Virus record (IMG/VR): IMGVR_UViG_2563366822_000013
Origin: a virus
Lineage: Duplodnaviria > Heunggongvirae > Uroviricota > Caudoviricetes
Direction: 5' to 3' (one strand)
DNA length: 8,513 bases
A model generated the notes under the pieces. It ran no database searches. It saw nothing but the letters and a program-made list of their open reading frames with translations, and had not been told where the DNA came from. Below, one piece after another: positions 1,149 to 8,229 of this stretch. The first letter of the stretch is position 1. The number at the start of each line of letters is the position of its first letter. The translations under genes were made by a program, and so were the position numbers.

Positions 1149-1469
1149 ATGACTCAATCCGCATTCATTCCACCAACTCCAGAACAGCGCCGCACCATAC
1201 TCGCCGAGTATGGTTTTGACTGCGAAGAACGCATCAGGGAAGAGAAGTGTAAAAAAATGACCACGCTTTCACGCTCCCGGCGCTGGGAACTGGAGAAGAT
1301 CGGTGCTTTTCCTCCCCGTCACTCTTTGGGGCGTTGCTCATGTACCTGGCTGTTAAGTGATGTTTTGTGGTGGCTACGTAATCCGCCAGTTATTGCCAAA
1401 GTGAATAACCCATACGAAAACGCCAAAAAGAAAAGGGAGAGGGAATCCGGTAGCGCCAGAGTTGAATAA
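1149..1469 (+). CDS. alpA: AlpA/Vis-family phage transcriptional regulator (excisionase-like HTH), 106 aa
   Basis: ORF with AGGGGG Shine-Dalgarno 4 nt upstream of ATG 1149. The segment MTTLSRSRRWELEKIGAFPPRHSLGRCSCTWLLSDVLWWL matches the AlpA-family pattern (TGLSRSTIYRL...G.FP.P..LG.R...W.E.DV..WL). An internal ATG at 1257 is an alternative start. Confidence 0.7.
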   Translation: MTQSAFIPPTPEQRRTILAEYGFDCEERIREEKCKKMTTLSRSRRWELEKIGAFPPRHSLGRCSCTWLLSDVLWWLRNPPVIAKVNNPYENAKKKRERESGSARVE

Positions 1470-1602: not shown

Positions 1603-1736
1603 CAACCAGTCAAGGATGTGCATTTAGTGCACCTGAAACCAACAATAAGAAATAATAGGCAGAAATGATTATGGCTTTTTTACTCTTAAAAATCAATCAC
1701 TCAGCGCAATCGCGCCAAAATAATTTGCAATATTGC

Positions 1737-1766
1737 TTGACTCGCTTTTTTGTCATGGCGTATCGT
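1737..1766 (+). promoter_or_regulatory. Putative sigma70 promoter for the downstream operon (-35 TTGACT, 18-bp spacer, -10 TATCGT), overlapped by palindrome GCAATATTGC
   Basis: TTGACT at 1737-1742 and TATCGT at 1761-1766; the perfect 10-bp palindrome GCAATATTGC lies immediately upstream of and overlapping the -35. Sequence-pattern call only. Confidence 0.3.
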
Positions 1767-1793
1767 TTGCCCGCACCTCATAAAACAGGTGCC

Positions 1794-1980
1794 GGGTTTG
1801 ACAGCCTGAATAAATTGGCGGGTAGCCGCTTGTATTCCGTAATGCGGTTTTTTTGTGCCCGTAATACCACCCTTTCCCGTATTATGGCGGGGCGTAATGG
1901 GGGAGCTTTATGCTCGCTGGTTTCCCAATTTGCCAGTCTGTCAACCCTGTTACGTCTCGCCACCACGTTTGACAGCGTTG
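1794..1980 (+). promoter_or_regulatory. Untranslated leader with three mutually complementary segments (A 1794-1818, B 1925-1947, C 1967-1977), analogous to P4 seqA/seqB/seqC immunity elements
   Basis: Segment A GGGTTTGACAGCCTGAATAAATTGG can pair with segment B CCAATTTGCCAGTCTGTCAACCC over 20 bp (one bulge, one mismatch, one small internal loop). Segment C repeats the 10-mer GTTTGACAGC of A and can pair 8 bp with B. A T7 run at 1848-1854 preceded by short GC stems follows A. The region sits between the putative promoter and the first small ORF. Confidence 0.3.
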
Positions 1981-2018
1981 TAGTGAGGCTTCTTAAACTT
2001 GAATTGGGAGCCTTTCAT

Positions 2019-2192
2019 ATGGCTATATCAACACGCCCTGATTTTATCTGGCGCTTTATGCAGTGCCACGGTAAAAATATCCGCCTTCATACCGTTACCG
2101 CTGCCAGTGAGCGCGAAGCGCGCGCCCTGCTTCCGGCATCTCGTCTGGTCTTTGTTGCCCGTATCCGTGTCCGGGAGGCGTGCCATGTTTAA
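2019..2192 (+). CDS. Small protein, 57 aa, possibly Icd-like host cell-division inhibitor (kil analogue); first gene of the coupled operon
   Basis: GGGAG Shine-Dalgarno at 2006-2010, 8 nt before ATG 2019. Sequence MAISTRPDFIWRF...TVTAASEREARALLPASRLVFVARIRV resembles, from memory only, small Icd-like proteins of P4-like prophages. The 175-aa ORF from 1665 in the track is rejected as read-through of the leader. Confidence 0.45.
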   Translation: MAISTRPDFIWRFMQCHGKNIRLHTVTAASEREARALLPASRLVFVARIRVREACHV

Positions 2193-2367
2193 GCTCCTTA
2201 TCACCCTGATTAACTACCAGAACGGCGACGTTCGCCAGATGATTCATTCCTGGGAATATCCGACTTATGACGATGCATGGCGTGATGCCTGTCGTATGGC
2301 ATATTCCCGCAATGACAAACAGGGGCGATTAACCCACAAATGCGCAGTAAAAATCATGGAGGGGTAA
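2185..2367 (+). CDS. Hypothetical small protein, 60 aa
   Basis: GGGAGG at 2172-2177 precedes ATG 2185; the start overlaps the stop of the previous ORF (ATGTTTAA), indicating translational coupling. Confidence 0.5.
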   Translation: MFKLLITLINYQNGDVRQMIHSWEYPTYDDAWRDACRMAYSRNDKQGRLTHKCAVKIMEG

Positions 2368-2369
2368 CG

Positions 2370-2558
2370 ATGTACGAGATTCATATTAAATTGCGTAACG
2401 TGGTAACAGGAGAGGAAGAAAACTTCTACACGATACGTAAATATAAATCAAAAGGAAAAGCGGCAAGGGACGCTATCAGGTATACGGAAGAAATTGCACC
2501 GAAATATCAATTGCCAGAAGAAGAACTCACAGCATCAGTGGTAAAGGTGAAGAAATGA
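2370..2558 (+). CDS. Hypothetical small protein, 62 aa
   Basis: GGAGGGG at 2358-2364, 5 nt before ATG 2370; starts 3 nt after the stop of the previous ORF. Confidence 0.5.
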   Translation: MYEIHIKLRNVVTGEEENFYTIRKYKSKGKAARDAIRYTEEIAPKYQLPEEELTASVVKVKK

Positions 2559-2773
2559 AAAGCCGTTCAATATCCCGTAAAAATAATGGCAGTGGTGAAA
2601 AACGTTTCTTTGTGTTGGGTTATGCCGTTAATAAGCGCGGGTTAACCAAACATGCACATGCAACGGTATACGGAACAGGGCCGGGCGAAGCCATACGCCG
2701 CGCAGCCGAAGGGCTGGAAGAACTGGGAATGACACATTTCAGGGCGTTGAAGGTGACGCAGCTTTCCGCCTGA
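2555..2773 (+). CDS. Hypothetical small protein, 72 aa
   Basis: ATGA start/stop overlap with the preceding ORF at 2555-2558; continuous ORF with protein-like composition. Confidence 0.5.
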   Translation: MKSRSISRKNNGSGEKRFFVLGYAVNKRGLTKHAHATVYGTGPGEAIRRAAEGLEELGMTHFRALKVTQLSA

Positions 2774-2840
2774 TTTCCGAATTATCCACTGATAACTGAA
2801 TTCAATTTATATTTCGACCTTAACGGGTCGGGGAGTTTTT

Positions 2841-3146
2841 ATGTCTGAAAATCAGAATGTCCGCAATATATACAAAAAAGAATACGCTGGCTTTTTCACA
2901 GAAGATTCCATTGGCAGTCTTGAGGATGTAATAAATGTTATTGCTCTTTTTTCAGCATTGACAGGTGAAATTAATACCAAAGAACGAATTACTGTACAAA
3001 GCGATGAAATGGAATCATTAACTAACATTCTTTATCGGGAATTACGAGCGATTAAATCAGGAATGCATCTTTCTGGCGGGATTTTTTCATGGCACAAAGC
3101 TGAAGCCGCAGGGATTGCTCGGAAACAAGAAGTAACGAGTAATTAA
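2841..3146 (+). CDS. Hypothetical protein, 101 aa, AT-rich
   Basis: GGGGAG Shine-Dalgarno at 2830-2835 and ATG at 2841. Composition (roughly 38 percent GC by eye) is lower than flanking genes. No recognisable motif. Confidence 0.55.
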   Translation: MSENQNVRNIYKKEYAGFFTEDSIGSLEDVINVIALFSALTGEINTKERITVQSDEMESLTNILYRELRAIKSGMHLSGGIFSWHKAEAAGIARKQEVTSN

Positions 3147-3152
3147 TAAAAA

Positions 3153-3177
3153 CCCCACTGCAAAAGGTGCAGTGGGG
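3153..3177 (-). terminator. Perfect 10-bp hairpin (CCCCACTGCA / TGCAGTGGGG, loop AAAGG) with terminator geometry for the minus strand, immediately upstream of the primase start
   Basis: On the plus strand the hairpin is preceded by an A-run and followed by a G-run, so it is not a plus-strand terminator. On the minus strand it is followed by TTTTTATTAATT. It contains the GTG at 3167 that the ORF track used as a start. Confidence 0.35.
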
Positions 3178-3190
3178 GGGGGATTTATAT

Positions 3191-5860
3191 ATGAAACACA
3201 ACACCAGAAAAGAGATTATTAACCGTCTCATCCGTGATTACAATTTTAAAGAAGAAAATAATTATCTTCGCTATGGTGTTTGTCCGCAATGTGGAAAGAA
3301 AGAGCTGTTTACCAGCCTTGAAAGGCCGTACATCGTACACTGTGGGCGCGAAAATAAATGCGGTACAGACCTGCTGACCAAAGAACTTTACCCGGATGTG
3401 TTTTCATCATGGTCAGATCGCTATATCAGCACGAAAGACGAGCCATATGCAGCGGCGGCAGCTTACCTTCAGGAGGCGCGCAATATTGCTGTGGAGCCAC
3501 TGAAGGGGGCATTTACTCAGGAGCGATACCAGGACAAGGAAAACGGCGAACAGGCCGCTACTGTGCGTTTTACGCTGGCTGACGGCGTGTGGTGGGAGCG
3601 CATCATAGACCGACCGGAACGCTTCGCTCGCAAGGCGAATTTTTCCGGCAGCTACAAGGGGTTGTGGTGGGCTTATCCGGGAGCGGATTTAAGCAAGGCC
3701 AAAGAAATCTGGATTTGTGAGGGTATCTTTGATGCCATCAGCCTTAACCAGAATGGCATTGCGGCCGTTTCTGTCATGTCTGCCGTAAACTACCCGGATA
3801 AGGCGCTGGAAGAACTGGCGAAGCTGTGCGGTGATACCCCCCGTCCGGTTATCGTGTGGGCGCTGGATAACGGGCGTGCGGGTGAGCGTTACGCGAAAAA
3901 ACATGCAGAACGCAGTGCCGAAGATGGCTGGAGAACGGCAGCGGCGTTACCGGGTGAAAACAACAATAAACGCGACTGGAATGATTTACACATCGCCGGA
4001 AAGCTGCGTGGCCATGATGTGAAAAGATACCGCTATTACGGTGATTTATTGCTGGCGAAATCTCCAAGAGATAAGGCGCTAATAATGTTTTCCTTTCGTG
4101 AGCGAAAGGAATTTCATTTTACTTTTGATAACCGTGTTTTCTGGTTCAAGCTGGATATTGAGCGCCATATGAAGGCTGTTGAGCGTGTCATTAATGAGCG
4201 AAATGTTGACGAAGATGAAGCGCGAAAAATTGCACTTAAGGAATCCGGTGCAGTAAAAGAAATCGCAAACTGTAACCCAGCGCCGCTTTATTACATTCGA
4301 AACAATGACACGGATGAAGCATGGTATTACTTCCGCGTTACGTTCCCGGATGGCGCTACGGTAAAAAACACCTTTACATCAGGACAATTAACATCCTCAT
4401 CTGAATTTAAAAAACGCCTGTTACATGTGGCAAAAGGCGGCATTTATACCGGAACGACTACGCAGCTTGACGCATTAATAAAAAATGACCTTCCCGCAAT
4501 AAAAGAGGTTATTGGTCAGGATTTTATCGGATACAACAAGGCCATTGGGGCATGGCTGTTTAATGATATTGCTGTTTACAGGGGTAAAACTTATGAAATC
4601 AATGACGAGGATTATTTTGAAATTGATGGCATAAACGCAAAACCATTAAGCGAAAAACCCACATTACAGATTAACTACAAAAAACCGGATGAATTTACAG
4701 AGTCCTGGGTGGAAGATCTCTGGCTGGCTTTTGGTGAAAAGGGAATTATTACCCTGGCTTTCTGGTTGGGCTCCCTGTTCAGCGAACAAATCCGGGATAA
4801 AGAAGAATCCTTCCCCTTCCTTGAAGTCACCGGGGAGCCCGGAACGGGTAAATCAACACTGATTGATTTTTGCTGGCGGCTGTGCGGTCGTGACAACTAT
4901 GAAGGCGTTGATCCAACCAAAGGATCAGAGGCGGGCTGGAAGCGCACCTTTGGACAGGTCGCCGGATTACCTGTTGTTCTGATTGAAGCGGACCGGGGAG
5001 ACAATGCGCAAAAAAGAGGTGCGTTTGACTTCGATAACCTGAAAAGTCTCTATAACGGCGGTGGTATCGGCGTTCGTGGTGTTAAGGCCAACAATAACAA
5101 CACCTATGATCCGGATTTTAAGGGCGCCATCGTGATTGCGCAGAATGCGCGGGTAAACGCCTCTCCGGCAATTATTGAGCGCCTGATACGCATATACACC
5201 GATAAAAAACGCCATTCACCTGATACCCGCCTGGCGGCGAGACGGCTGGAACTTTACCCCGTCGAGAAGGTATCTGGGTTTATTCACCGGGCGGTAAGTC
5301 AGGAACGGGCGATTATGCAAACGTTCCTGGAAGTATCTCCAGCTGAAACGGAACGCCTTTGCGGATGCGAAAATATTCGCCATCCCCGCATCGCCAAAAA
5401 TCACGCACAACTTATCGCGCTGGTCAGGGCGCTGAAATGCGTTATTGATATCCCGGATGAATGGCTTGATGCCACATGTCTGGAGCTGGAACAAATGGCA
5501 ACAGCACAGGTTAAAGCGGCGGCGGCTGACTTGCCGGAAGTGATGGAGTTCTGGGAGGCGTTCGACTTCCTGGACGGCATAACAAAATACGGCGTAAACC
5601 ACTACGGCAAGGGATGCCGCGAAGGGATTGCTATCAGTATTCCGCAGCTGGCACAGGCTGCCGCCATTCACCGCGTGGAGATCCGAACCGATCGCGAAAT
5701 GATTGAGTTGCTCGGAGCCGGACGTTCCCGACCTTTGACAGGCCGCAAAACCATTCGTAGTGAGGTGTCCAGACAGGCAAACGCCGGAAAAGGAGTAGCC
5801 GAAGCCAGAGAACCTGAAGTACTGAAATGCCGGATATTCAGTTACAAGGAGGGGGCTTAA
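3191..5860 (+). CDS. Bifunctional replication primase-helicase (P4 alpha-like): N-terminal zinc-binding motif, TOPRIM primase domain, P-loop NTPase helicase; 889 aa
   Basis: Cys cluster CPQCGKK...HCGRENKCG from nt 3281; TOPRIM glutamate in IWICEGIFDA (E codon 3719-3721) and acidic motif VWALDNGRAGE; Walker A GEPGTGKST (4832-4858), Walker B VVLIEAD, and a downstream IAQN motif. Start set at ATG 3191 rather than GTG 3167, which lies inside the upstream hairpin. Confidence 0.9.
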   Translation: MKHNTRKEIINRLIRDYNFKEENNYLRYGVCPQCGKKELFTSLERPYIVHCGRENKCGTDLLTKELYPDVFSSWSDRYISTKDEPYAAAAAYLQEARNIAVEPLKGAFTQERYQDKENGEQAATVRFTLADGVWWERIIDRPERFARKANFSGSYKGLWWAYPGADLSKAKEIWICEGIFDAISLNQNGIAAVSVMSAVNYPDKALEELAKLCGDTPRPVIVWALDNGRAGERYAKKHAERSAEDGWRTAAALPGENNNKRDWNDLHIAGKLRGHDVKRYRYYGDLLLAKSPRDKALIMFSFRERKEFHFTFDNRVFWFKLDIERHMKAVERVINERNVDEDEARKIALKESGAVKEIANCNPAPLYYIRNNDTDEAWYYFRVTFPDGATVKNTFTSGQLTSSSEFKKRLLHVAKGGIYTGTTTQLDALIKNDLPAIKEVIGQDFIGYNKAIGAWLFNDIAVYRGKTYEINDEDYFEIDGINAKPLSEKPTLQINYKKPDEFTESWVEDLWLAFGEKGIITLAFWLGSLFSEQIRDKEESFPFLEVTGEPGTGKSTLIDFCWRLCGRDNYEGVDPTKGSEAGWKRTFGQVAGLPVVLIEADRGDNAQKRGAFDFDNLKSLYNGGGIGVRGVKANNNNTYDPDFKGAIVIAQNARVNASPAIIERLIRIYTDKKRHSPDTRLAARRLELYPVEKVSGFIHRAVSQERAIMQTFLEVSPAETERLCGCENIRHPRIAKNHAQLIALVRALKCVIDIPDEWLDATCLELEQMATAQVKAAAADLPEVMEFWEAFDFLDGITKYGVNHYGKGCREGIAISIPQLAQAAAIHRVEIRTDREMIELLGAGRSRPLTGRKTIRSEVSRQANAGKGVAEAREPEVLKCRIFSYKEGA

Positions 5861-5862
5861 AC

Positions 5863-6867
5863 ATGCCGATCAGAAAGCTGGATGATGGGCGATGGTTGCT
5901 CGATATCAGGCCATGCGGACGTAAAGGAAAGCGCGTCAGAAGAATATTTGACAGAAAATCGATAGCTGTAGCAACTGAACGGTACATCATAGCGAACGCC
6001 GAAAAACGCGAGTTTATACAGGGCTACCGCGACCGGAGAACCCTCAGCGATTTACTGGAGTTGTGGTGGGTTTATCACGGTCAGCACAGGCGAAAGGCAG
6101 GCACAGATAAACAGCAGCTTGGCAAAATCATTAATGAGCTTGGAGCTGACATGTTTGCGGTAGAGCTCGACAAATTAAAAATCATTGCATGGCGATCGCA
6201 GAAAATTGCGGAAGGGCTAAAGCCGTCCTCAGCAAACAGATATATGAACAGATTATCAGGGATGTTTACAACCCTGAAAAAGATCGGTTTGTGGGATGCA
6301 GAACATCCTGTTCGCGGTATTCCTGTTCTTTACGTAAAGCAGCGAGAGATGGCCTTTTTATCAAAAAACGAGGTCACATTGTTGCTTGACAGACTGAATG
6401 GAGATCAACGAAGGGTTGCGCTCTTATGTCTTTGCACCGGAGCTCGCTGGAGTGAAGCCAGCAGATTACACGGAGAGCAAATAGTTCATAACAGAATCAC
6501 GTTTCTGGAAACCAAAAACGGCAGGAAAAGAACGGTGCCCGTGTCGCAGGAGATATGCAATATCGTAAAAACAAAAGAAACCGGGCGACTGTTTGATGTG
6601 AAGTACAGAGAGTTTTGCCGGGCATTAAAAAAAATAAAACCCGATTTACCGAGGGGGCAGGCTGCGCATGTATTGCGGCATACATTCGCCAGTCACTTTG
6701 TGATGAACGGTGGCAACATTCTTGCGCTACAAAAAATCCTTGGGCATGCGACAATTCAGCAGACTATGGCATACGCACATTTTGCACCGGATTATCTGGC
6801 AGATGCCATGAGATTTAACCCGGTAGCCAACATAGTGATCACCGAAGAAAAAGAGCCAGCAGAGTAA
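5863..6867 (+). CDS. int: Tyrosine recombinase / phage integrase, P2-type; 334 aa
   Basis: AAGGAGGGGG Shine-Dalgarno embedded in the primase 3-prime end; ATG 5863 lies 2 nt after the primase stop. N-terminus MPIRKLDDGRWLLDIRPCGRKGKR resembles P2-family integrases. Box I TGARWSEA and box II HVLRHTFASHF...LGHATIQQTMAYAHF with the catalytic Tyr codon at 6772-6774. Confidence 0.93.
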   Translation: MPIRKLDDGRWLLDIRPCGRKGKRVRRIFDRKSIAVATERYIIANAEKREFIQGYRDRRTLSDLLELWWVYHGQHRRKAGTDKQQLGKIINELGADMFAVELDKLKIIAWRSQKIAEGLKPSSANRYMNRLSGMFTTLKKIGLWDAEHPVRGIPVLYVKQREMAFLSKNEVTLLLDRLNGDQRRVALLCLCTGARWSEASRLHGEQIVHNRITFLETKNGRKRTVPVSQEICNIVKTKETGRLFDVKYREFCRALKKIKPDLPRGQAAHVLRHTFASHFVMNGGNILALQKILGHATIQQTMAYAHFAPDYLADAMRFNPVANIVITEEKEPAE

Positions 6868-8046: not shown

Positions 8047-8229
8047 ATGTCTTTCCCTTGCCCGGCCTGTGGCGCTTCAGCCCGCACCCGTGGTCGTTCG
8101 TTGGAAGAACACGAACAAAATATCTACAAAACGTATTACCAGTGCAATAATATTGAGTGTGGGGCCTGTTTTTGTACGCTTGAGTCGTTTGTACGCATTA
8201 CTAAGCGCAGGAAGTCGAAAACTTCATAG
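8047..8229 (+). CDS. ogr: Ogr/Delta-family zinc-finger late-gene transcriptional activator, 60 aa
   Basis: Strong Shine-Dalgarno and ATG 8047. Protein MSFPCPACGASARTRGR...YYQCNNIECGACFCTLESF carries the CxxC...CxxxxC zinc finger and the surrounding pattern of P2 Ogr (CPLC...YHQCQNVNCSATF.TYES). Confidence 0.8.
   Translation: MSFPCPACGASARTRGRSLEEHEQNIYKTYYQCNNIECGACFCTLESFVRITKRRKSKTS

Follow-up and report, generated by a model that had tools for sequence, protein, structure and literature searches.

Results

Organisation of the locus

The stretch of DNA analysed here (8,513 nt, hereafter the window) carries a leader in which a sigma-70-like promoter is followed by a short leader RNA with its own intrinsic terminator, a second structured RNA, two further sites complementary to that RNA, and a small ORF of the Icd/Kil type (Table 1). 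A Phage_AlpA gene lies upstream, and a series of small ORFs, a primase, and a second tyrosine recombinase lie downstream. The small ORFs following the icd-like gene match no family, and control of the downstream operon by the leader is presumed from the same-strand, closely packed order of these genes. The element also carries a P2-family capsid gene and an Ogr/Delta-type regulator. Its closest E. coli relative among the matches listed is flanked by gcd and hpt, and the RefSeq record of that relative annotates a single 175-aa "Icd-like" CDS only. A candidate Ogr/Delta-type late promoter (TGT-N12-ACA, 1518–1535) was discarded, the three matches to this pattern in the window against 1.8 expected not being significant.

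Table 1. Features of the leader region and its surroundings, in window coordinates
Feature	Position	Strand	Basis or description
Phage_AlpA gene	1149–1469		Upstream of the cassette
Long eta-like ORF, 175 aa ("Icd-like protein" in RefSeq)	1665–2192	+	ORF list, annotation
Leader promoter, sigma-70-like (predicted)	1737–1766	+	TTGACT (−35, 1737–1742)-18-TATCGT (−10, 1761–1766); promoter scan
IsrK-like/seqA-like short leader RNA	1773–1854	+	Rfam isrK RF01394
a1 target site TTGACAG	1798–1804	+	Complementary to a'; aligned with annotated P1 a1; covaries with a'
b1 target site AAATTGG	1812–1818	+	Complementary to b' (CCAATTT); aligned with annotated P1 b1
Intrinsic terminator, P4 t1 equivalent	1824–1854	+	Stem 1824–1829/1844–1849, U7 1848–1854; 3' end of isrK model
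C4/CI-type antisense RNA	1880–1967	+	Rfam C4 RF01695
b' specificity element UCCCAAUUU	1923–1931	+	Within the 10-nt loop 1922–1931 of the second hairpin
a' specificity element CUGUCAA	1938–1944	+	Exactly the 7 unpaired nt joining the b' hairpin to the closing stem
a2 target site TTGACAG	1969–1975	+	Equals part of P4 seqC; aligned with annotated P1 a2; direct repeat D4; covaries with a'
b2 target site AATTGGGA	2002–2009	+	Inverted repeat I6, 8/8 complementary to 1923–1930; covaries with b'
Icd/Kil-like ORF, 57 aa	2019–2192	+	NCBIfam phage_ICD_like NF033153, 55.7 bits (cut-off 25)
Downstream operon	2185–6867	+	Small ORFs; Toprim/DUF5906 primase 3167–5860; second tyrosine recombinase 5827–6867
Ogr/Delta-type zinc-finger regulator	8047–8229		

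Three Rfam models match the leader: C4 (70.5 bits against a gathering cut-off of 45, E = 1.4e-12, model positions 1–87 of 87), isrK (52.3 bits, marginally above its cut-off of 50, model positions 1–77 of 77 with the terminator included), and c4-a1b1 (RF03163 at 1760–1812, 36.9 bits, E = 1.5e-6, below its gathering cut-off of 46.7). The immunity region of P4 returns the identical triplet in the identical order, with scores of 74.9, 60.8, and 44.1 bits respectively, so that P4 also falls under the c4-a1b1 cut-off; in the window, a1 and b1 are present and covarying despite the sub-cut-off score. The P4-like succession of promoter, segment A, T7 run, segment B, segment C, Icd-like ORF, and replication operon, from which an RNA-based immunity switch had originally been predicted, hence reflects homology beyond analogy.

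In terms of the elements defined here, segment A of the original prediction (1794–1818) comprises a1 and b1, segment B (1925–1947) comprises b' and a' of the C4-like RNA, and segment C corresponds to a2, with the fourth element and functionally central target, b2, having been missed. The proposed complementarities are borne out by the sequence, with A and B able to form a 21-bp imperfect duplex (−23.6 kcal/mol, RNAduplex; core I1, 1795–1808/1934–1947), C repeating the 10-mer GTTTGACAGC of A (1796–1805 and 1967–1976), and C also able to pair with B through inverted repeat I3 (1938–1949/1964–1975).

Promoter and short leader RNA

The promoter-like site of the original prediction was recovered by the promoter scan, and in the alignment with P1 its −10 hexamer falls opposite TATAGT, the annotated −10 of promoter P1c4/P51b. 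Judging from this alignment, the site is a putative constitutive promoter, homologous in position to P1c4/P51b and analogous to P4 PLE; the long eta-like ORF encloses it. The short leader RNA comprises, in order, hairpin 1 (1773–1792), hairpin 2 (1793–1808) with a1 in its loop, b1, the terminator hairpin, and the U-run, with hairpins 1 and 2 backed by compensatory changes (RNAalifold). P1 carries a different b1 (GTTAGTG) and a compensating change in b'.

The T7 run noted at 1848–1854 does follow a hairpin, and of the two termination points predicted near 1850 and 1990, the first coincides with an intrinsic terminator, whilst no terminator-like structure was found near the second. The terminator at 1824–1854 was overlooked by the terminator scan because its loop exceeds 8 nt; the same scan returned no second terminator-like site on the + strand between 1400 and 2400. 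The terminator has a competitor in a small hairpin (1817–1821/1826–1830), which takes up bases of both b1 and the terminator 5' arm. In constrained folding of the window, the free leader adopts this competing hairpin and blocking of a1 and b1 leads to the terminator. A switch of this kind is predicted in the window and in homologous leader L004 only, with P1, P4, and L033 forming the terminator in both states; a general hairpin/terminator switch driven by C4 binding to b1 was therefore rejected, and the behaviour of the window is a local inference.

The C4-type antisense RNA and its targets

Alignment to the annotated ends of P1 c4 predicts a mature C4-like RNA of 79 nt (1886–1964). It folds with a minimum free energy (MFE) of −43.4 kcal/mol (z = −5.85), with identical MFE and centroid structures; the stable structure accounts for 59% of the ensemble of the RNA alone and is unchanged within the MFE structure of the whole 258-nt leader. 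A long closing stem surrounds two hairpins such that both antisense elements are exposed, and the stems show compensatory changes among homologous leaders. The original prediction treated segment B as a free part of the leader, which does not agree with this fold, in which B forms the b' loop and the a' joint of a separately folded RNA. Over the RNA core, identity is 78% with P1 c4 and just 54% with P4 CI.

The element b' is complementary to b1 over 7 of 7 nt and to b2 over 8 of 8 nt, with a' complementary to both a1 and a2 over 7 of 7 nt. The b2 site overlaps the Shine-Dalgarno sequence GGGAG (2006–2010) of the icd-like gene, whose ATG is at 2019, and aligns with the annotated b2 of P1, the record of which describes a2/b2 as "repression of icd ant translation". 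The assignment of the downstream gene as kil/icd-like also holds, as the model that recognises the 57-aa ORF likewise matches P1 Icd (52.6 bits) and P4 Kil (73.9 bits), and the ORF is 44% identical to P1 Icd.

Covariation among homologous leaders

Homologous loci were sought with the Icd-like protein and not with the RNA. A two-sequence alignment of the protein yielded 79 loci in viral contigs, which gave 55 distinct leaders ≥300 nt long, and one locus in genome contigs, where the 57-aa Icd-like query by itself gave nothing usable. All 55 leaders align on one layout, from the promoter to the icd start. For the covariation analysis, the elements were cut out by fixed anchors, independently of complementarity, and then counted; column-based counts on the full leader alignment were dropped for b because the loop of the window type is 1 nt longer and the register is shifted.

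Within the window alone, the segment 1918–1948 binds 1793–1822 at −26.5 kcal/mol (equalled by 7 of 2000 dinucleotide shuffles) and 1963–2014 at −23.2 kcal/mol (41 of 2000), with both loop-region pairings jointly matched by 1 of 2000. Covariation among homologues, which the original prediction had named as a check on the pairings, is three-way across the leaders, linking b' with b1 and b2, and a' with a1 and a2. Over 18 haplotypes, 100% of cells pair, 8 of 14 pairs are changed on both sides, and compensatory cells number 71 and 70; the covariation scores of 0.706 and 0.704 compare with 0.20 ± 0.03 for shuffled elements (0 of 500 reaching the observed score) and with ≤0.10 when the elements are slid. 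Cognate duplexes average −25.9 and −30.0 kcal/mol, compared with −16.7 and −20.5 kcal/mol for non-cognate combinations (0 of 20000 permutations). The signal is thus modest in the single sequence and overwhelming when homologues are considered.

Specificity alleles

Among the 39 P1-like and satellite leaders, 12 b' alleles are present, each fully complementary to its own b1 and b2. Two a alleles are found in the close clade, with more in distant clades, and the a and b alleles assort independently. Changes in the specificity of the RNA and of its targets are matched within each locus, with the exception of a1 in L049 and L052. The window combines the a allele of P1 with a rare b allele, which also occurs in L014 and L015, there together with another a allele; both of these loci carry tandem heterospecific cassettes. 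The L004 leader has CUUUGGU as its b' allele, and E. coli HCP5S3_I2 carries a leader 100% identical to that of the window. Compared with the closest E. coli relative among the matches listed, the window shows 53 differences within 1785–2018 (~235 nt) and 4 within 1–1700, the two elements being ~97% identical overall and 22% different exactly within the cassette. As every loop change of the RNA has its counterpart at two targets, this is direct evidence of diversifying selection on the specificity of RNA immunity in E. coli satellites.

Discussion

Relationship to known immunity systems

The region 1737–2192 of the window is an RNA immunity switch of an E. coli phage satellite, built around a C4/CI-type antisense RNA, and very probably represents the immunity cassette of a P4-like satellite (PICI) occupying the gcd-hpt site of E. 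coli, belonging to the same family as P1 immI and the immunity region of P4. The RNA immunity system itself is already well known, whilst the specificity allele carried by the window is rare.

The closest likeness is to immI of P1, where the order is a1/b1, c4, a2/b2, icd, and ant1/ant2 (P1/P7; RF01695, RF03163). DNA identity is ~75% at 1792–2001, from a1 to just before the icd start codon, and in a longer alignment the similarity extends from the promoter to within icd. All sites annotated in P1 (a1, b1, c4, a2, b2, and the icd start) have positional counterparts. P1 and the window share an identical a allele (TTGACAG/CUGUCAA), the position of b2 over the ribosome-binding site of an Icd-like ORF, and a C4 fold presenting b' in a loop and a' in a joint. 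They differ in the b allele, CACUAAC in P1 and CCAAUUU in the window, which b1 and b2 match in each case, and are therefore predicted to be heteroimmune. Furthermore, the C1-controlled P2c4 promoter of P1 and its operator have no upstream counterpart in the window by alignment, and the frame of the eta-like ORF, which spans the leader in the window, is closed in P1. The cargo also differs, with P1 encoding the antirepressor ant1/ant2 and the window encoding small ORFs, a Toprim primase, and a tyrosine recombinase, but no ant; and P1 is a plasmid prophage, in contrast to the chromosomal satellite that hosts the window.

In P4, the order is PLE, seqA, t1, CI RNA (seqB), seqC, kil/eta, and the replication operon with the alpha primase. 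The roles of CI, seqA, and seqC, and of premature termination, have been summarised previously (PMC4825925), with IsrK equated to seqA and C4 to CI (PMC3632133). The window resembles P4 in its Icd-like Kil, in a promoter enclosed by a long ORF whose 3' part is the small kil/icd ORF, and in having an alpA-family gene upstream, a primase operon downstream, and an Ogr/Delta-type regulator. The statement that the sequences are not recognisably those of P4 is correct as far as it goes, given the low identity of the RNA core and the lack of any P4 match by blastn, but overlooks that they are recognisably homologous to P1 immI. Both the a and b alleles differ from those of P4, the P4 alpha protein is only remotely similar to the window primase, and the window adds the second tyrosine recombinase and the P2-family capsid gene. 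The start of the eta-like ORF lies ~195 nt from the alpA-like stop in the window, whereas the two are reported to be directly coupled in P4 (PMC10111431). Of the P4 apparatus, which involves processing by RNase P and PNPase, and trans termination at t1, t4, and the Rho-dependent timm, only a t1-like terminator is visible in the window sequence.

Gifsy-1 IsrK/STnc1160 offers a third parallel, as the leader of the window matches isrK end to end. In Gifsy-1, a short terminated RNA and read-through transcripts share a promoter, and a processed RNA of ~80 nt from farther downstream is complementary to the short one (PMC4825925); the same is predicted for the window. Gifsy-1 differs in that the cargo is the antirepressor-like AnrP, the short RNA activates, and no Icd-like gene is described. 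C4 and isrK profiles have also detected relatives of CI and seqA in several GN-PICIs and HE-PICIs, in a survey that defined a PICI subfamily integrated at hpt (PMC10111431), consistent with the gcd-hpt position of the closest relative of the window among the matches listed; specificity alleles were not analysed in that survey.

Proposed mode of action

By analogy with P1 and P4, the leader would be transcribed from the constitutive promoter, with some transcripts ending at the intrinsic terminator (~1854) to give an IsrK/seqA-like RNA of ~80 nt bearing a1 and b1. From read-through transcripts, a stable C4/CI-like RNA of ~79 nt (~1886–1964) would be excised by processing, and its b' loop and a' joint would then act in trans, pairing with b2 and a2 of new transcripts and hiding the ribosome-binding site of the icd/kil-like gene. 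With this gene untranslated, transcription would end early, as in Rho-dependent termination in P4, leaving the primase operon silent. Such silencing would extend to both the resident element and incoming elements of equal specificity, with the specificity of immunity set by the a and b sequences. Binding of the C4-like RNA to a1/b1 may favour the leader terminator and in this way limit production of the RNA itself. Transcripts originating farther upstream could translate the eta-like ORF across the leader, and would thereby escape control.

Alternative readings of the leader

A positive switch of the IsrK type is a less likely, tentative reading. Here, the short RNA carrying a1 and b1 would serve as a decoy in trans; by capturing a'/b' in either the long transcript or the C4-like RNA, it would expose the icd-like ribosome-binding site and turn the operon on. 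Such a switch would add a layer to repression by C4 rather than replace it. The isrK match above its cut-off is in keeping with this, as are observations in Gifsy-1, where short IsrK supplied in trans raises translation of an orf45-anrP fusion >100-fold, the inactivating IsrK changes G28A and G31A have been tested against the complementary downstream changes C162U and C159U, and a processed RNA of ~80 nt likened to CI, STnc1160, arises from read-through transcripts (PMC4825925). Moreover, the conservation of a1 and b1 and their covariation with a' and b' imply selection for pairing. In P4, however, seqA has been reported to serve CI-dependent termination and the establishment of lysogeny, which corresponds to repression (PMC3632133). 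Additionally, a1 is mismatched to a' in L049 and L052 while a2 remains matched, suggesting a weaker constraint on the upstream site and leaving its role less certain. The t1 terminator of P4 was reportedly described by Briani et al. in 2000.

A purely cis-acting attenuator, in which termination is decided by whether A-B or B-C pairs in the same nascent transcript, each helix precluding the other, and no trans-acting RNA is processed, appears very improbable. Both pairings are possible, as the original prediction proposed, and the isrK-orf45 RNA of Gifsy-1 adopts two alternative conformers in vitro (PMC4825925). The suggested alternation between A-B and B-C folds is nevertheless difficult to reconcile with the persistence of the C4-like fold in the whole-leader MFE structure, where segment B is held in the loop and joint of an independent and stable fold. 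As B lies in a separate stable fold, and as the homologues P1 c4 (record annotation) and P4 CI (PMC4825925) are processed, trans-acting immunity factors, a choice between A-B and B-C helices in cis was not adopted as the main model. Furthermore, the diversification of alleles under strict matching at three sites is a signature of specificity and heteroimmunity, and would make little sense for a switch acting in cis.

The weakest alternative, in which conservation stems from the protein-coding ORF 1665–2192 alone and the complementarities are incidental, draws on the annotation of this open frame in RefSeq and on all 10 satellite-type leaders keeping it open across the 330 nt examined (in three indel configurations), but is effectively refuted as a sole explanation by the confinement of the Icd-like domain to residues 9–51 of the 57-aa ORF, by stop codons that close the frame 6–11 codons before the ATG in 32 of the 55 leaders (P1 included), which retain the RNA elements, by compensatory changes across sites up to ~190 nt apart, which coding constraint cannot yield, and by the high scores of the Rfam covariance models. 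The ORF itself may be translated, like P4 eta: it starts upstream of the promoter, spans both RNAs, and shares its end with the icd-like ORF, as in the nested eta/kil arrangement described for P4 (PMC10111431). The suggestion that the 175-aa ORF is an annotation artefact was dropped in view of this nesting and of the frame being kept in all satellite-type leaders.

Implications of a possible specificity code

Beyond repression by a C4-like RNA as the favoured reading of the cassette, a broader and decidedly speculative proposal, which we consider unlikely on present evidence, is that the a and b elements form a recognition code common to chromosomal satellites and P1-like phage-plasmids, with the hypervariable b element the product of an arms race. 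A two-module code common to both types of element would mean that their RNAs could cross-react, even between unrelated elements within one cell. Were the arms race to be real, selection would favour satellites and phages that evade the RNA immunity of their counterparts or impose their own, and the tandem heterospecific cassettes of L014 and L015 could be understood as answering two immunity types together.

The biology described here is nothing new in principle. Annotation of the region would best show three features: a leader RNA of the IsrK/seqA type, an antisense RNA of the C4/CI type, and, within an eta-like ORF, a 57-aa gene of the Icd/Kil type. The ~12 natural and apparently orthogonal antisense/target pairs could serve as regulators, and closely related elements that differ in the cassette constitute a clean natural experiment.

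Organisation and family membership of the cassette

An Rfam scan of the window returns three plus-strand matches, adjacent or overlapping, to the C4, isrK and c4-a1b1 profiles, and the P4 immunity region gives the identical triplet in the same order in the same scan, with scores of 74.9, 60.8 and 44.1 bits. By the curated thresholds the window's cassette is a member of the Rfam C4 and isrK families, with c4-a1b1 alone scoring below its cut-off, as it does in P4. P1 immI and the window DNA share about 75% identity, with pairwise alignment placing a window counterpart opposite the P1-annotated P1c4/P51b -10, a1, b1, c4 RNA, a2, b2, and icd start. The 57-aa ORF at 2019–2192 matches NCBIfam phage_ICD_like (55.7 bits), a match shared by P1 Icd and by the old P4 'cI' ORF in its C-terminal (Kil) part. 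Together, the Rfam triplet, the site-by-site alignment to P1, and the common Icd-like match make the window, P1, and P4 cassettes homologous; the original prediction of a P4-like immunity region is thus borne out by the triplet and its order, and by the Icd/Kil-like first gene. The equivalence of IsrK with seqA, and of C4 with CI RNA, has already been drawn in the literature (PMC3632133; PMC4825925), and gram-negative PICIs are matched by the C4 and isrK profiles (PMC10111431). P1 immI is the nearest relative by sequence and the P4 immunity region the nearest by genomic role. Unlike P1, the window has no ant gene as cargo; its sequence, alleles, and primase set it apart from P4, the primase showing only remote similarity to P4 alpha.

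Features of the C4-like immunity cassette (window coordinates)
Feature	Position	Strand	Remarks
C4 antisense RNA (Rfam)	1880–1967	+	70.5 bits, cut-off 45, full-length
isrK (Rfam)	1773–1854	+	52.3 bits, cut-off 50
c4-a1b1 (Rfam)	1760–1812	+	36.9 bits, below cut-off 46.7
Promoter	-35 1737–1742, -10 1761–1766	+	sigma-70-like
Leader hairpin 1	1773–1792	+	
Leader hairpin 2	1793–1808	+	loop holds a1
a1	1798–1804	+	TTGACAG
b1	1812–1818	+	AAATTGG
Terminator	stem 1824–1829 with 1844–1849	+	U7 1848–1854
C4-like RNA	1880–1967	+	predicted mature form 1886–1964, from alignment to annotated P1 c4 ends
b'	1923–1931	+	wholly within 10-nt hairpin loop
a'	1938–1944	+	CUGUCAA, exactly the 7-nt unpaired joint
a2	1969–1975	+	TTGACAG
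b2	2002–2009	+	AATTGGGA, overlaps Shine-Dalgarno GGGAG (2006–2010) of ORF with ATG at 2019

The C4-like RNA folds with a free energy of -43.4 kcal/mol (z = -5.85), exposing its antisense elements a' and b', which are complementary to an upstream target pair (a1/b1) and a downstream pair (a2/b2). The original prediction had described a promoter-like site, a T7 run, and three mutually complementary segments, A (1794–1818), B (1925–1947), and C (1967–1977). A sigma-70-like promoter is indeed found, the T7 run lies 3' of a hairpin, and A and B can form a 21-bp imperfect duplex with a computed energy of -23.6 kcal/mol. The 10-mer GTTTGACAGC occurs within A at 1796–1805 and again at 1967–1976, each copy being complementary to 1938–1947. 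Segment A corresponds to a1 and b1, B to b' and a', and C to a2, with the fourth element, b2, overlooked; it pairs perfectly with 1923–1930 and occludes the Shine-Dalgarno sequence of the first gene. Without homologues, the complementarity within the window stands out only moderately: when the B region was dinucleotide-shuffled 2000 times, 1 shuffle bound both flanks equally well.

Covariation of the antisense and target elements

Homologues were retrieved using the Icd-like protein as the probe, without use of the RNA, yielding 79 loci from viral contigs. These gave 55 distinct leaders 300 nt or longer, with one further, truncated leader left out. All 55 can be aligned over a shared layout that runs from the promoter to the icd start. 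The 39 P1-like and satellite leaders hold 12 b' heptamers between them, every one matched by a perfectly complementary b1 and b2 in its own locus, and two a alleles (TTGACAG and TTAGCAG), with additional a and b alleles present in distant clades. The two elements assort independently, the window's b allele being seen with the other a allele in the homologous loci L014 and L015.

Covariation across homologues, put forward in the original prediction as a check on the pairing, is evident for a'b' with both a1b1 and a2b2, counted separately over 18 distinct haplotypes with elements cut out by fixed anchors. All cells pair (100% for both targets), both sides vary in 8 of the 14 pairs, and 71 (a1b1) and 70 (a2b2) cells are compensatory. 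The covariation scores of 0.706 (a1b1) and 0.704 (a2b2) compare with 0.20 ± 0.03 for shuffled pairings, none of 500 shuffles reaching the observed values; slid controls do not exceed 0.10. An RNA paired with its cognate target forms a duplex ~9 kcal/mol more stable than with a non-cognate target (0 of 20000 permutations). RNAalifold analysis of the 55 leaders supports both hairpins of the leader as well as the stems of C4, 13 pairs being compensatory. In two loci, L049 and L052 (leader at about 2722–3021), a1 is complementary to its own a' at only 2 of 7 positions while a2 matches, suggesting that a1 is less constrained than a2; these loci look like recombinants.

Proposed mechanism of immunity

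By analogy with characterised homologues, the leader would be made from a constitutive promoter, with a fraction of transcripts stopping at the terminator 3' of a1/b1 to give an IsrK/seqA-like RNA, and read-through transcripts being processed to a C4/CI-like RNA. The latter would pair in trans with a2/b2 and block translation of the icd/kil-like gene, leading to premature termination upstream of the primase operon. Pairing with a1/b1 would be expected to boost termination at the leader terminator, making the RNA autoregulated; enhanced termination and autoregulation are reportedly known for P4 t1 from the work of Briani et al. in 2000. In the P1 record, the a2/b2 sites carry the annotation 'repression of icd ant translation', and the P4 immunity logic is summarised in PMC4825925 and PMC10111431.

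Constrained folding of the window and of homologous locus L004 shows that the free leader forms a small hairpin (1817–1821 with 1826–1830, window coordinates) that sequesters the 5' arm of the terminator, with the terminator forming instead when a1 and b1 are blocked. These folding models fit a termination boosted by a1/b1 pairing; however, the switch is not general, as P1, P4, and locus L033 form the terminator in both states. When placed on the Rfam isrK consensus, the IsrK-inactivating changes G28A and G31A lie in or beside the a1 loop. In Gifsy-1, orf45, downstream of IsrK, is conserved in nucleotide sequence yet variable in amino-acid sequence and gives rise, by processing, to the ~80-nt RNA STnc1160 (PMC4825925), which is how a C4-like RNA would look.

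A long ORF over the leader

RefSeq annotates 1665–2192 as a single 175-aa 'Icd-like protein', with neither ncRNA annotated. This ORF starts upstream of the promoter, spans both RNAs, and ends with the 57-aa ORF. It was at first viewed as an over-extension, a view dropped because the frame is open in all of the satellite-type leaders (10 of 10), despite three indel configurations involving compensating 1-nt indels. In 32 of the 55 leaders, that of P1 included, stop codons close the frame 6–11 codons before the ATG. The nested eta and kil genes of P4 show the same arrangement, and the putatively translated 175-aa ORF resembles eta with its nested kil. As cited in PMC10111431, translation of P4 eta from an upstream late promoter prevents termination, rendering such transcripts insensitive to immunity (Forti et al. 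1999).

An unannotated putative ORF at 1462–1668 (a mechanical call; 68 aa from a TTG start) opens 6 nt ahead of the stop of the alpA-like gene (1467–1469), with its TGA overlapping the ATG of the long ORF at 1665 (ATGA). It could link the alpA-like gene to the eta-like ORF in a chain of coupled translation. Between these two genes lies the dyad TGTGAACACGTTGCTACA (1518–1535), of the form TGT-N12-ACA, as in Ogr/Delta activator sites at P2/P4 late promoters. A late promoter corresponding to P4 PLL might lie at the dyad, though three matches in the window against 1.8 expected is not significant alone. Two minus-strand terminator-like hairpins with T-runs (1582–1603 and 1700–1719) lie just upstream of the leader promoter, with no obvious minus-strand feature needing them, and may insulate the leader or work in both directions.

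The element, its alleles, and their distribution

In the closest relative among the matches listed, the element lies between gcd and hpt and carries an integrase, an AlpA-family gene, the cassette, small ORFs, a Toprim/DUF5906 primase, a second tyrosine recombinase, an Ogr/Delta zinc-finger gene, a P2-family major capsid gene, and MazEF; it probably belongs to the 'hpt PICIs' described in PMC10111431. The element has two tyrosine recombinases (window 5827–6867, and L001 4785–5984). One sits beside gcd at the left end, beyond the window, and the second directly 3' of the primase in the replication-gene operon.

The cassette is a specificity hot spot. Among complete E. coli genomes, strain P13-6 gives the highest-scoring match to the whole window (96.7% identity over its length), yet it shows only 4 differences in 1–1700 against 53 in 1785–2018, located in a1, b1, the first C4 hairpin (where they are compensatory), b', a', a2, the a2-b2 spacer, and b2. 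A homologous leader is present in 538 of 5426 complete E. coli genomes, at 224 chromosomal and 410 plasmid places, the plasmid copies having for the most part about 75% identity and lying on records some 90–100 kb long; the window allele, at ≥95% identity, occurs in only three records. As the window C4 has the a allele of P1 but a different b allele, its sequence predicts heteroimmunity to P1. P1/P7 and P4/phiR73 are known examples of heteroimmunity that arises through matched changes. The cassette belongs to a known kind of system and carries a rare allele, which would not surprise a specialist. It is mildly interesting as a clean picture of diversifying selection on a two-module (a, b) RNA recognition code common to satellites and P1-like plasmids.

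Several immunity cassettes per replicon or cell are not rare, with two E. coli plasmid records of about 100 kb (H49 and H52) holding up to three leader-matching places each, one genome holding five, and locus L060 carrying two Icd-like/C4-like copies on opposite strands. L014 (2350–3010), and likewise L015, carries two complete C4-icd cassettes in tandem on one strand. The first in L014, of a distant clade, has b' CCTGTAAC, a' GTCCTAA, a2 TTAGGAC, b2 GTTACAGG over the Shine-Dalgarno sequence, and its own Icd-like ORF, and the second, directly after it, combines the b allele of the window with the alternative a allele.
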